From IMG/VR virus record IMGVR_UViG_2617270959_000010: a stretch of 12,481 bases of DNA, one strand, 5' to 3'. The position numbers and the translations under genes were made by a program. The notes beneath the pieces are model-generated. The model had not been told where the DNA came from. It did not search any database and worked only from the letters and a program-made list of their open reading frames with translations. Below, in pieces: positions 1 through 11,914 of the stretch (its first letter is position 1; the number at the start of each line of letters is the position of its first letter). The stretch is from a virus (lineage: Duplodnaviria; Heunggongvirae; Uroviricota; Caudoviricetes).

Positions 1-270
1 ATGAAAGAGCTTGAGTTAAAGAAACCGATTACCGCTCATGGCGAGACACTCTCCGTACTGGAGTTTGATGAGCCCACCGGGAAAGATGTCCGCGAGCTGG
101 GGTATCCCTACCAGATGAATCAGGATGAGTCCGTCAGACTTCTGGCGCATGTGGTATCGAAATACATTGTGCGGCTGGCGAAAGTGCCGCAAAACTCTGT
201 CGACCAGATGTCTCCGGCAGACCTGAATGCAGCGGCGTGGCTTGTGGCTGGTTTTTTCCTCCAGGCCTGA
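1..270 (+). CDS. Phage tail assembly chaperone (lambda gpG-like / Mu gp41-like), 0-frame product; may be 5'-truncated by the window edge
   Basis: 89-aa ORF immediately upstream of and overlapping-coupled to the tape-measure gene; slippery heptamer 4 codons before its stop; position typical of chaperone genes. Upstream context not visible. Confidence 0.55.
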   Translation: MKELELKKPITAHGETLSVLEFDEPTGKDVRELGYPYQMNQDESVRLLAHVVSKYIVRLAKVPQNSVDQMSPADLNAAAWLVAGFFLQA

Positions 271-419
271 CGGCTGAATACCTCACTGATCGCTTCTTTG
301 ACTGCGCCAGCTACTGGCGCATTAATCCCTTCGAATTGCTGAATATGCCGATCAGTGAAATTCCCTTGCTGGTCAGTCAGGCAAACAGGATAGAGCAGGA
401 GAAACGCACACATGGCTGA
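1..419 (+). CDS. Tail assembly chaperone -1 frameshift fusion product (gpGT-like), about 139 aa if the slip occurs at 252-258
   Basis: Overlapping ORFs 1..270 (frame 1) and 237..419 (frame 3) in the -1 relationship; the frame-3 ORF ends at 419, overlapping the tape-measure ATG at 412. This is the conserved arrangement upstream of tape-measure genes in tailed phages. Confidence 0.45.
252..258 (+). other. Candidate programmed -1 ribosomal frameshift site (slippery heptamer T_TTT_TTC)
   Basis: Frame-1 codons GGT TTT TTC at 250-258 give an X_XXY_YYZ heptamer at 252-258; the -1 frame (frame 3) stays open from 258 to the TGA at 417-419. Confidence 0.5.
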
Positions 420-2253
420 ATTTGAGCTTAAGGCGTTGATCACCGGTGTCGACAGGCTTTCTCCCGCGCTGTCGAAAATGCAAAAGAAAATCCGGGGATT
501 TAAACGCCAGGCGGAAGAAGCGTCACAGGGTGGGCTGGCGCTTGGTGGCGGACTGGCAGCGGGTCTGACGCTTTCCCTGAAATCTTATGCCGATCAGGAA
601 AACGCCGCCACCGGGCTGAAAGTCGCCATGATGGATGCGAATGGCGAGGTTGGAAAGAGCTTTCAGGACATCAATAAACTGGCTATTGGCCTGGGTAACC
701 AGCTACCCGGTACAACGGCTGATTTCCAGAACATGATGCAGATGCTGGTGCGTCAGGGGATCCCGGCAGAAAACATTCTGGGTGGTGTGGGTAAAGCGAC
801 AGCTTATCTTGCGGTACAACTGAAAAAAACACCGGAAGCGGCTGCTGAGTTTGCTGCAAAGATGCAGGATGCTACCGGAACGGCGTCAGAAGACATGATG
901 GGGCTGTTCGACACTATCCAGAAGGCGTTTTATCTGGGCGTTGACGATACCAACATGTTGTCCTTCTTCACTAAAACCAGTTCTGTTCTGAAGATGGTGA
1001 ACAAGGACGGTCTTCAGGCTGCACAGAGCCTTGCCCCCATCAGCGTCATGATGGATCAGATGGGGATGAACGGGGAGTCGGCAGGTAATGCCCTGCGAAA
1101 AGTTATCCAGTCCGGATTAAGCGTTAAGAAAATCAGGGACGTCAATAAAGTCATGGCCCGCCAGAAACTCGGGGTACAGCTCGATTTTACTGACGGCAAA
1201 GGAAGTTTTGGCGGTCTTGATAACATGTTCAGGCAACTGGCAAAGCTGCGAAAACTGACCGACGTTAAGCGAACAGGTGTACTTAAGGCAATATTTGGTG
1301 ATGATGCCGAAACCCTTCAGGTGGTCAATGCACTAATCGATAAAGGAAAGGATGGCTACGATCAGATCCAGCAGAAGATGAATAAACAGGCCAGCCTGAA
1401 TAAACGTGTTCAGGCCCAGCTTGGTACGCTGTCCAACCTGTGGGAGGCAATGACGGGGACCGCAACTAACGGCCTTGCGGCTATTGGCGGCGCATTTTCT
1501 GGTGACGCCAAAAATATCACGCAATGGCTGGGGGAGTTAGGGGAAAAATTCACGAAGTTTGCGGATGAAAATCCCCGGGTTATTCGCGGCGTCGTCGGGC
1601 TTGCTGCCGGTCTTGCGATTCTGAAACTGGGATTGATGGGCGTTGGCGGGGCCATCAGTATTGTCAGCAGGATCATGTCGATGACGCCGATTGGAATGAT
1701 TGCGACGGCGATAGCCCTGGCTGCGGGATTAATTATCACTAACTGGGATGTTGTCGGACCTTATTTCAAGAAGCTCTGGGAAACCATTGGTCCTTATTTT
1801 GAGGCTGGCTGGGAACTTCTGAAGAAGGTTTTTGCCTGGTCGCCGCTGGGGATGGTAATCAATAACTGGGGACCGGTTGTTAAGTGGTTTCAGGATATGT
1901 GGGACAAGCTGAAGCCGATTATTGAATGGTTTACCGACAGTTCCGGTGACACGGTCGATGCCATTAACTCTGCGCAGTGGGGCGCGGGTGCTTATGATGC
2001 TTATGGGACGGGATTCCCGGCGCGGGGATACACACCTTATCCGGCGATGGATCCGGCTCAGGCAAACAACGCCTCCGATGCCACAGGCCCGAATCCCTTC
2101 ATGATTAACAAAGCTTCTGCGCCAAAAGTTGACGGTGAGATCAAGGTCTCTTTTGTGAATTCGCCTCCGGGTATGCGGGTTATGGAAACGCGATCCAGCG
2201 GTATCGACGTGAATCACGACGTTGGCTACACCCGATTTGGTATGGGGGGCTGA
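412..2253 (+). CDS. Tail tape measure protein
   Basis: 613-aa ORF; N-terminal region predicted helical (A/L/K/Q-rich), central Gly/Ala-rich hydrophobic segment, C-terminal Trp-rich repeats (WDVVGPYFKKLWETIGPYFEAGWELLKK...WGPVVKWFQDMWDKL); located between chaperone and baseplate genes. Confidence 0.8.
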   Translation: MAEFELKALITGVDRLSPALSKMQKKIRGFKRQAEEASQGGLALGGGLAAGLTLSLKSYADQENAATGLKVAMMDANGEVGKSFQDINKLAIGLGNQLPGTTADFQNMMQMLVRQGIPAENILGGVGKATAYLAVQLKKTPEAAAEFAAKMQDATGTASEDMMGLFDTIQKAFYLGVDDTNMLSFFTKTSSVLKMVNKDGLQAAQSLAPISVMMDQMGMNGESAGNALRKVIQSGLSVKKIRDVNKVMARQKLGVQLDFTDGKGSFGGLDNMFRQLAKLRKLTDVKRTGVLKAIFGDDAETLQVVNALIDKGKDGYDQIQQKMNKQASLNKRVQAQLGTLSNLWEAMTGTATNGLAAIGGAFSGDAKNITQWLGELGEKFTKFADENPRVIRGVVGLAAGLAILKLGLMGVGGAISIVSRIMSMTPIGMIATAIALAAGLIITNWDVVGPYFKKLWETIGPYFEAGWELLKKVFAWSPLGMVINNWGPVVKWFQDMWDKLKPIIEWFTDSSGDTVDAINSAQWGAGAYDAYGTGFPARGYTPYPAMDPAQANNASDATGPNPFMINKASAPKVDGEIKVSFVNSPPGMRVMETRSSGIDVNHDVGYTRFGMGG

Positions 2254-2334
2254 TACCCCGCTTAAACACGGGTTTTGTCGTTTAGCAGGTTCTTGGTAGG
2301 ATTAGTCCGATACTTTAATGATGGGAATAGGGAT

Positions 2335-3012
2335 ATGAAAGTCTTAACAATTTATTCAGTTGTCGGCATGGCTCTTTTACTCGGGGGATGTACCTCTCCG
2401 AAGTACAATTATTTACCAAAAACAGAAAATTATAGTGAACCTCCTGTAGGAAGCATTAATACAGCTTATGTCGGTGATTCAATGATTAAGCAGGGGGTGT
2501 CACAGAGGTTTGAAGGTCTGAAGGTTAATGCTCCTGCGAGAATTTCCTGGGCGTATACGATCACTCCGGGGATGCTGAAAAAGGTTGGTGAGGATAACAA
2601 GGCTGATTATTACTTTCTCACAAACGGTGCTGATTCAGCCAATGTGGAAAAGGCAGCCCTTGCCGATATGTGGCAGGGCATCATGGTAGAAAAGAAAAAG
2701 AATGCCTTATGTGTAATAACAGTTTTCGGTGTTACCAACTGTGAAACTAACATGCCTATCGAAAAGGTTACTCTGAATATCAGTGGTGATTCATCTTTCC
2801 AGCAAGCTCTGCTTTACAACGGAAGGGTCGGAAACAAAATCAACATTGGATATCGTGAATTTTCATCGAATACAGCACGCCCGGCCTTCAACAACGATGT
2901 TGAGTATGATCTCGCGGAGTCTAAAACAATTGGCTATAAAGGGGCTAAATTCGAAGTACTTGATGCGAGTAACCAAAGCATAAGGTATCGGGTAATAAGT
3001 AACTTTAGATAA
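2335..3012 (+). CDS. Predicted outer-membrane lipoprotein of unknown function (moron); start revised to ATG 2335
   Basis: ORF track starts at a TTG (2275), but the ATG at 2335 gives a typical signal peptide MKVLTIYSVVGMALLLGG-C with lipobox LGGC and Thr at +2; GGGA 8 nt upstream; visibly AT-richer than flanking tail genes; followed by a strong intrinsic terminator. Confidence 0.7.
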   Translation: MKVLTIYSVVGMALLLGGCTSPKYNYLPKTENYSEPPVGSINTAYVGDSMIKQGVSQRFEGLKVNAPARISWAYTITPGMLKKVGEDNKADYYFLTNGADSANVEKAALADMWQGIMVEKKKNALCVITVFGVTNCETNMPIEKVTLNISGDSSFQQALLYNGRVGNKINIGYREFSSNTARPAFNNDVEYDLAESKTIGYKGAKFEVLDASNQSIRYRVISNFR

Positions 3013-3026
3013 GCGATAATTTAATG

Positions 3027-11197: not shown

Positions 11198-11556
11198 TTC
11201 GCATCCCTAAAGACAATGAACTTTGAATAGACGAAACCGCACACCAGGCTGATGGCGGAGAAGGTGACAAGAGTTATCATCGGGGGAAGTGCGCATCTAT
11301 CAGCAGCCCATCCAACAGTAGCACTGAGTGTTCCCATGAACCCGACATATAACATGTAGCGCATCGTTGTAGTTGATGCTTTGAATGTGAATTTTGCATT
11401 CGCGAAGAAGCTAAAACTCACAGCCACAACGAAACCTGCGAAGTTTGCCAGAGCCTGATTGGTATGCGCGGCATAGATACATACACCAAAAACCACCCAG
11501 TGTATAAGTGTGTTCAGCACACCAATCGAGGTGTACCTTGCAAATATATTTAACAT
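11194..11556 (-). CDS. gtrA: Bactoprenol-linked glucose translocase (flippase) GtrA
   Basis: 120-aa four-TM protein; sequence [59 protein letters not shown]... matches GtrA/YfdG as I recall it. Confidence 0.9.
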
Positions 11557-11718
11557 TTATTTAATCAATGAGTTCTGAAAGGTATGAAGTCTATCATCCA
11601 AGTCTCAATCGATCGATACTTGCGGTAGTTGATGAGGAAAACTCTGGTACACAAAGCTTTGCACTGGACTGCAAGGTGTTGTGCTTCTCTGGAGTGCGAT
11701 ATGTTTGATGACAAAAAA

Positions 11719-11753
11719 TTAGCGCAAGAGGACAAAAAATCACCTTGCGCTAA
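11719..11753 (-). promoter_or_regulatory. Perfect 10-bp inverted repeat TTAGCGCAAG-N15-CTTGCGCTAA upstream of the gtr operon; candidate operator or insulating terminator
   Basis: Read directly; on the minus strand the stem-loop is followed immediately by TTTTTTGT (complement of 11711-11718); lies between the att P arm and the gtrA start. Confidence 0.35.
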
Positions 11754-11759
11754 TGCTCT

Positions 11760-11899
11760 GTCTCAGGTCACTAATACCATCTAAGTAGTTGATTCATAGT
11801 GACTGGATATGTTGTTTTTTGTAGTATCATGCAGTCTATTTTTTAGACTAAATGTGTTTTAACACATTGATATTATTGGCTTTTGCTGTTTCGCGTTCA
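11760..11899. promoter_or_regulatory. Lambda-type attachment-site P arm (Int arm-type sites P1 and P2, presumed IHF/Xis/Fis sites)
   Basis: CAGGTCACTAATAC (11764-11777) and CATAGTGACTGG (11795-11806, inverted) match lambda Int arm-type sites; the whole stretch is collinear with the lambda attP P arm as I remember it (TCTGTTACAGGTCACTAATACCATCTAAGTAGTTGATTCATAGTGACTG...TCGTTCAGCTTTTTTATACTAA), nearly identical for the first 60 nt or so. Confidence 0.7.
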
Positions 11900-11914
11900 G
11901 CTTTTTTATACTAA
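11900..11914. mobile_element. attR core (lambda common core GCTTTTTTATACTAA) joined to the bacterial B' arm
   Basis: Exact 15-bp lambda core; downstream CTTGAGCGAAACGG is the B' flank of E. coli attB(lambda), upstream is the phage P arm, giving a P-O-B' (attR) configuration. Confidence 0.85.

Follow-up and report, generated by a model that had tools for sequence, protein, structure and literature searches.

Right arm of an Escherichia coli prophage that joins an SfV-like tail module and gtr genes to a lambda-type attachment site

The stretch of DNA analyzed here (hereafter the window) comprises 12,481 nucleotides from the IMG/VR virus record IMGVR_UViG_2617270959_000010. It very probably represents the right arm and attR junction of a temperate Escherichia coli prophage of the 042p1 type, that is, an SfV/e14-like lambdoid myovirus with gtrABC cargo and a defective tail, in which the thrW-type attP-int-xis segment has been replaced by a lambda/HK97-type sib-attP-int-xis cassette of approximately 1.66 kb. 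A block of plus-strand genes with a GC content of 51-59% extends from position 1 to approximately 8500 and is followed by a minus-strand block whose first gene is AT-rich (GC 33-37% between 9000 and 10500), and then by a short piece of non-coding sequence and, at the right edge, a gene on the minus strand. A tRNA check found no tRNA genes in the window, and the matches returned by a promoter scan of the window were no more numerous than in shuffled sequence. The reference relative used throughout is the complete E. coli genome CNREC-004-43 (loci L001 and L002), and comparisons were also made with the corresponding locus of enteroaggregative E. coli (EAEC) 042 (L006) and with a P22-like Salmonella prophage (L009, GCA_013555955.1).

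The plus-strand block is a tail and baseplate module whose Pfam families follow the Mu-type order of tail assembly chaperone, tape measure, N (gp43), P (gp44), V (gp45), gp46, gp47 (J), gp48, fibre and Tfa, with P and V present only as fragments. The chaperone gene (1-270, Mu gp41/P2 E-like; Phage_TAC_7, E 3.6e-16) is 97.5% identical at the nucleotide level to SfV orf13, and the gene for the 613-residue tape measure protein (412-2253; PhageMin_Tail, E 1e-26) is 97.5% identical to SfV orf14. These are followed by the gene for a DNA-circularization protein resembling Mu N/gp43 (3066-4295, with Pfam-scan starts at 3024 and 3066; DNA_circ_N, E 6e-34) and by the remains of P and V, to which we return below. 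Next come a GP46 baseplate protein (5142-5570; GP46, E 6e-33), a Baseplate J or Mu gp47-like protein (5557-6615; Baseplate_J, E 5e-53) and a Mu gp48-like baseplate wedge protein of the YmfQ family (6606-7190; Phage_Mu_Gp48, E 9e-26). The module ends with a tail fibre of 310 residues (7194-8126; Gly_rich_2 and PHROG tail-fibre families), which joins an SfV-like N-terminus to a glycine-rich C-terminus unlike that of SfV, and with the tail fibre assembly protein Tfa (8127-8531; Caudo_TAP, E 2e-32), whose gene is 74% identical in nucleotides to lambda tfa. A GC-rich, terminator-like hairpin at 8788-8806, found by a terminator scan (8-bp stem with seven GC pairs), separates the convergent late and gtr operons, and SfV has an annotated terminator at the equivalent position.

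The relationship of this module to SfV is close. By blastn, nucleotide identity to SfV is 97.5% over 1-2240, 96.7% over 3021-4905 and 96.9% over 4886-7495, so that the SfV orf13-orf21 region matches the window tail module at 96.7-97.5%, and falls to 80% over gtrB and gtrA (10299-11676). The SfII, SfV and SfI genomes cover 64-65% of the window at approximately 94% overall, and SfV, SfII, SfI and SfIV share the same Mu-type tail and baseplate order at approximately 97% nucleotide identity, with gtrABC located between the tail fibre genes and attP. The portions of the window that are not SfV-like are an inserted gene (2241-3020), the region 7496-8800 with the fibre C-terminus, Tfa and a tfa remnant, gtrC, and everything to the right of approximately 11676. 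The Sf phages differ from the window in gtrC and in the C-terminus of the fibre, and their gtrAB genes are only 80% identical.

The three genes that follow on the minus strand form a gtr cassette lying directly inside attR. GtrA (11194-11556; GtrA_DPMS_TM, E 2e-13) corresponds to the translocase of undecaprenyl phosphate-linked glucose, characteristically a small protein with four transmembrane segments, and GtrB (10283-11197; Glycos_transf_2, E 2e-30) is a bactoprenol glucosyltransferase of glycosyltransferase family 2 whose gene is 80% identical to SfV gtrB. The third gene (8815-10281), with a GC content of approximately 34%, occupies the gtrC position and encodes a 488-residue candidate for the serotype-specific glucosyltransferase. 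Some ten hydrophobic segments and, at the C-terminus, a domain of approximately 110 residues can be recognized in this protein, which is 32% identical (E 4.5e-81) to Ec042-0853, the O44 enzyme of 042p1. An AlphaFold2 model built on 20 homologues (predicted local distance difference test 85, predicted template modelling score 0.86) has as its best matches in the PDB only enzymes of the glycosyltransferase C (GT-C) fold that use lipid-linked sugars, namely STT3, PglB, DPY19, AftB and ArnT, with template modelling scores of approximately 0.5. The predicted structure is therefore that of a polytopic GT-C protein, as expected for the third gene of a Gtr system. The segment that connects predicted helices one and two (residues 27-46) contains two nearly invariant aspartates, D34 and D44.

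In the established Gtr mechanism, glucose is loaded onto a lipid carrier, flipped across the membrane and transferred to the O antigen, and the modeled features of GtrC fit this scheme. GtrB would load glucose onto undecaprenyl phosphate, GtrA would flip the lipid-linked glucose to the periplasm, and GtrC, through its GT-C fold, would attach this glucose at one defined site in the O unit. For the acceptor, the most likely candidate is the mannan backbone that the host lineage shares with O17/O44/O73/O77/O106. The gtrABC genes are thus predicted to be lysogenic-conversion cargo whose product glucosylates the O antigen and changes the serotype. We found a single GATC site in 11557-11900, versus five upstream of gtrA in the P22-like Salmonella copy, and the paired-GATC cluster typical of P22-type Dam/OxyR control does not occur upstream of gtrA in the window. 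A Dam/OxyR-type phase switch is therefore unlikely for this cassette.

Beyond gtrA, the window contains a lambda-type attachment site. Positions 11645-11918 are 87% identical to lambda 27470-27742, and the P arm is 91% identical to that of HK106, with the changes relative to both phages (87-91% identity) falling between the protein-binding sites. The 15-bp lambda att core GCTTTTTTATACTAA occurs as a single exact match at 11900-11914, which is the attR crossover region, and is followed by the attB B' sequence CTTGAGCGAAACGGG and then by host ybhB (12005-12481, minus strand; Pfam PBP, E 2e-42), a kinase inhibitor of the phosphatidylethanolamine-binding protein family that forms the bio-side flank of attB(lambda); in the annotation of the relatives, bioA comes next. 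Alignment with lambda attP and a motif search place the predicted sites of the P arm (11766-11899) in lambda order: P1 GGTCACTAAT at 11766-11775, the integration host factor (IHF) site H1 at 11782-11794, P2 CAGTCACTAT on the minus strand at 11796-11805, an Xis/Fis region, and the IHF site H2 at 11860-11872, both IHF sites conforming to the consensus WATCAANNNNTTR. Distal to the P arm lies the sib/tI retroregulatory hairpin of the lambda int transcript (11707-11766, minus strand), which is near-identical to that of lambda and has a predicted folding energy of -45 kcal/mol (z -3.7) on the int-sense strand. The core, P1, H1, P2, H2, the sib/tI hairpin and the attB between ybhC and ybhB are all shared with the lambda/HK97/HK106 integration module. 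Lambda itself has a siphovirus tail, in contrast to the contractile Mu-type tail of the window, and the rest of the phage is unrelated.

These features set the window apart from the Sf phages, which are described as integrating at thrW (PMC3636060). Their integrase belongs to the P22 family and their core is the 46-bp thrW sequence, where the window has a lambda sib-P arm-core arrangement; a motif search found no thrW-type core in the window. SfV homology in the window ends before SfV's own attP core is reached, and SfV shows the 3' end of a tRNA where the window has lambda sequence. A preliminary description of this DNA, made from its letters alone, had proposed a Mu-like myovirus gene order, insertion at attB(lambda) with lambda-type arm sites, thrW integration for the Sf phages, and gtr cargo, and all four proposals are borne out by the analyses above.

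The left end of this type of prophage can be seen in the relatives. In CNREC-004-43 the prophage sits between ybhC and ybhB with an attL of the lambda BOP' form, and Int and Xis at that end are identical to those of lambda at 353 of 356 and 71 of 72 residues (relative H4, the CNREC-004-43 prophage, is 99.4% identical to the window). The closest DNA to the int-xis region of the relatives is HK97, at 99.1% nucleotide identity. Lambda homology in CNREC-004-43 runs over attL-int-xis (lambda 27724-29126, 97.8%) and gives way within a few bases to sequence resembling SfV orf28, and the interior of the near-identical relatives is mostly SfV-like. Taken together, the window and the left end of CNREC-004-43 bound a cassette corresponding to lambda 27470-29126, which stands in place of SfV 20511-21981. 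The swapped cassette would allow a lambda-type Int, together with IHF (and with Xis and Fis for excision), to recombine the 15-bp core with the attB between ybhC and ybhB.

It could be argued that two adjacent elements are present, with an SfV-like prophage beside or inside an older lambda-like remnant and a lambda-type attR that is not its own. Only attR is visible in the window, and the P arm is 87% identical to lambda as compared with 97.8% for the int-xis region of the relatives, which could suggest separate histories. However, the P arm, at 91% identity to HK106, is no more than a variant of the lambda family, the window has no thrW-type core, and SfV homology stops short of its attP core. 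Moreover, the relatives and EAEC 042 have a single integrase, of the lambda type, at the left end, and one attL and one attR flank one continuous phage genome of 41-42 kb. We therefore consider two separate elements highly improbable, and favor a single prophage with an exchanged integration cassette.

The sites of exchange can be placed with some precision. SfV-type sequence runs to approximately 11643-11676, SfV homology reaching 11676, and lambda homology begins at 11645, which leaves a boundary of approximately 32 bp (11645-11676) that is similar in SfV, lambda and the P22-like Salmonella prophage. We infer that the gtr-side crossover took place within this short sequence common to gtr phages and lambda, and the other crossover would have occurred just past xis. 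The shared motif (ACACAAAGCTTTGCA..GG..TGCAAGG) lies at lambda 27470-27501, SfV 20480-20511 and approximately 6500-6540 of L009; in lambda it is distal to sib, and in L009 it has the thrW core on one side and the gtr regulatory region on the other. A small hairpin can be drawn in it. Conservation of the motif may reflect a role as the boundary of int cassettes or as their crossover sequence.

The same junction is found in many bacterial genomes. When the gtrA::lambda-arm junction (window 11400-11898, counted where at least 80% of its length was present) was used as a query, it was recovered from 98 of 5426 complete E. coli genomes, and full coverage of the window, at 99.0-99.5% identity, is seen in nine complete E. 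coli genomes, with coverage of at least 80% in 36. A chimera produced by assembly or sequencing, in which an SfV-like prophage contig was joined to the gal-bio region, has in its favor only that prophage repeats often misassemble. Since the junction recurs in 98 independent complete genomes, including long-read assemblies and the Sanger-sequenced genome of 042, it is not an assembly artefact, and we regard the chimera as vanishingly unlikely. Among 50,697 deposited phage records, none carries the gtrA::lambda-arm junction, and no deposited phage record spans the xis::SfV junction. This prophage type is therefore known so far only as a prophage. SKA5 was examined as a candidate for the free-phage form and rejected, as it has another integrase, an invertase and no gtr genes. 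A second candidate for that form was vB_EcoM-689R6, likewise a relative of the tail module.

The copy in the window shows signs of decay. Comparison with L001 by blastn (pieces 1-4905 and 4901-12481) reveals the absence of 868 bp, corresponding to L001 22906-23773, with a deletion junction at 4901-4905 marked by GGCAG microhomology. The deletion removes the 3' part of the P-like hub gene and the first 104 codons of the V-like spike gene, and fuses P codon 171, of the 359 in the full-length P/gp44-like gene of the relatives, out of frame to approximately codon 105 of the 182-codon V. What remains of the hub gene (4391-4912, plus strand, as are all genes of the module) retains 171 native codons before the frameshift and matches only GpP-like_1st and Gp44-like_2nd in Pfam. 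The spike gene (Mu gp45/V-like) survives as a remnant of 78 codons (4909-5145) whose translation is the C-terminus of the 182-residue V protein of L001 and has no Pfam match. In addition, the N-like gene carries a TGG-to-TGA nonsense mutation at 4293-4295 (codon 410 of 442 relative to L001), which shortens the protein by 33 residues. This gene has 14 further amino-acid changes relative to L001, itself 99% identical, which suggests relaxed selection. A complete set of intact baseplate genes is accordingly missing from the window; gtrA, gtrB and gtrC are all intact.

Hub and spike proteins are essential for baseplates of the Mu and P2 types. With both lost, tail assembly should therefore fail, and the window copy is most likely a prophage that has become defective but still has its conversion cargo in place. 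The preliminary description had assumed by implication an intact, inducible serotype-converting phage, and had overlooked both the P/V deletion and the nonsense codon in the N-like gene; its hub-like gene is indeed P/gp44-like, although only the first 171 of 359 codons are present and V/gp45 is reduced to the remnant described above. An intact phage would be in keeping with the full-length P, V and N genes of relatives H1-H9 and with the viability of the related phages SfV, SfI and SKA5. Nevertheless, the frameshifting loss of 868 bp across P and V and the premature stop in the N-like gene, in proteins of which hub and spike cannot be dispensed with, make this very unlikely for the present copy.

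The combination of an SfV-type tail, gtr genes and lambda-type integration at attB(lambda) is already known from prophage 042p1 (ROD15) of EAEC 042, serotype O44:H18. Chaudhuri et al. 2010 (PMC2808357) describe this prophage as 40.8 kb in length, with a 15-bp direct repeat at its ends, a structural half highly related to SfV, and gtrAB and Ec042-0853 as cargo, gtrA and gtrB lying at the extreme end past the tail genes. The gtr genes of 042p1 are attributed to Wang et al. 2007 (as cited in PMC10304059 and PMC7685785), and the first of these citing papers assigns the O44 gtrA, gtrB and wbbG genes of that study to a putative prophage at the usual lambda insertion site, with ybhB and ybhC on either side. 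In our comparisons, 042p1 shares with the window type the ybhC-ybhB site, the 15-bp lambda core repeat, lambda-type Int and Xis beside attL, the SfV-like head and tail module, the tail fibre with Tfa and the tfa remnant, and the gene order gtrC-gtrB-gtrA directly inside attR. The two are 96.6-97.6% identical in nucleotide sequence over window positions 1-2242, 3062-8784 and 10278-12481 (blastn against L006), and the GtrA protein of the relatives is identical to that of 042p1. They differ in GtrC, which is only 32% identical, in the gene between the tape measure and N, and in P, V and N, which are intact in 042p1. The early region of 042p1 is lambda/P22-like, and that of the closest relatives of the window is SfV-like.

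The suggestion in the preliminary description that the element is a distinct lineage or a recombinant is supported. It is a recombinant lineage, namely an SfV-type serotype-converting prophage with lambda-type integration at attB(lambda) and not at thrW, but it is not novel: 042p1, with the same modules at the same site, is the kind of previously described phage that the preliminary description itself had named as grounds for giving up the idea. That lambdoid phages exchange integration cassettes is textbook knowledge, and the window is a case of ordinary lambdoid mosaicism.

Other systems show how freely these modules are combined. The cryptic K-12 prophages e14 and CPS-53/KpLE1, as well as SKA5, contain the same SfV-like gene families (ymfL/Q/R and yfdG/H/N/P/Q), and the tail module of SKA5 is 97-98% identical to that of the window. 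However, e14 and SKA5 have an invertase and no gtr genes, CPS-53 carries gtrAB at argW, and the integration sites and integrases of all three are other than those of the window. With SKA5, e14 and CPS-53 carrying other integrases, the structural module is seen to be routinely paired with different integration cassettes. The gtr cassette is similarly mobile. In L009, gtrA-gtrB-gtrC (6686-9582) is 95.4% identical in nucleotides to window 8704-11596, and GtrC is 99% identical in amino acids. L009 differs from the window in being a podovirus with a tailspike and a thrW core, and in having a region with multiple GATC sites upstream of gtrA. The same cassette thus moves between phage morphotypes and between genera, gaining or losing the phase-variation region.

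Two further loci in the window bear on the variability of such prophages. Between the tape measure and N genes lies a moron (2335-3012, plus strand; GC approximately 43%) that encodes a predicted lipoprotein of 225 residues with a lipobox in its translation (MKVL...LLGG|C). It matches phrog_1353, annotated as 'unknown function' (E 1.5e-98), and searches of Pfam, NCBIfam and PHROGs gave no informative family. At the same site SfV has nothing, 042p1 has an opposite-strand gene with an oligonucleotide/oligosaccharide-binding fold, and SKA5 has another open reading frame; the differing genes identify this position as a moron hotspot. The lipoprotein may have a role in superinfection exclusion. The second locus is the inverted remnant of a second tfa gene (8503-8631, minus strand), which RefSeq annotates as 'tail fiber assembly protein, incomplete' at the co-linear position in L001 (27376-27504). 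It is a relic of an invertible tail-fibre segment that is still intact, together with its invertase, in SKA5 and e14; no invertase gene was found in the window.

Several points weigh against the reading of the window as a cassette-swapped, serotype-converting prophage. The int and xis genes and attL lie outside the window and are taken from relatives that differ from it by 0.5-1%, and the boundary may fall at the 32-bp shared stretch only by coincidence, with the crossover itself located elsewhere. None of the Pfam and NCBIfam models, that of the GtrII family among them, matches GtrC, and a PHROGs search likewise returned no informative family. Finally, the evidence for an effect on the O antigen, discussed next, is indirect and comes from the O-antigen gene cluster of a carrier relative and from homologues in Salmonella strains, not from the window's own host.

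The gtrC allele of the window is present in 25 of 5426 complete E. coli genomes, always with at least 99.5% identity, and is 100% identical in DNA to that of 11 genomes. Among the carriers are M00057, M11957 and M7424, which are Shiga toxin-producing E. coli of serotype O77g:H18, sequence type (ST) 69, with stx2d, and are Australian strains from hemolytic uremic syndrome (HUS). Another, related carrier is CNREC-004-43, a 2025 French HUS outbreak isolate (O77g:K92:H18, ST69) with an intact prophage copy, a gtrC that is 100% identical in nucleotides (L001 27688-29154), and the wzx and wzy genes of the O17/O44/O73/O77/O106 group. Homologues of GtrC reach 99% identity in Salmonella enterica and 89% in serovar Carrau, which we take to be a member of the O:6,14 group, whose backbone is the same. 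The SfV-like tail module and the gtrC allele are megabases apart in PS_131_S11 (NZ_CP145099.1) and in the PRO_A strains, so that a different prophage also harbors the allele there.

We tentatively propose, as an assignment that falls somewhat short of probable, that GtrC is an unassigned side-branch glucosyltransferase of the E. coli O77 group, representing either the missing O73 or O106 determinant or an unrecognized sixth form. A role as the O17 determinant was considered and rejected: the 25 carriers do not include K12a, the O17 reference strain, and the context of gtrA in K12a is exclusively non-lambda. The French outbreak strain is reported not to agglutinate with any of the five O77-group antisera (PMC13094856), and a sixth form would explain this failure. 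It can thus be hypothesized that the GtrC allele and serological untypeability are linked in the O77-group ST69 lineage.

As a mosaic the element is not new, given that the exact combination has been published for EAEC 042. What the survey of complete genomes brings out is that prophages of this type, present in 98 of 5426, recurrently carry alternative gtrC alleles at attB(lambda) within the O77-group/ST69 lineage, and the window provides an example of a defective copy that keeps its conversion cargo. For genome-based serotyping, the O-antigen cluster alone cannot separate O17, O44, O73, O77 and O106, and typing of gtrC alleles at this locus could do so. The remaining interest lies in the uncharacterized GtrC allele and in its possible link to untypeability among O77-group ST69 strains.

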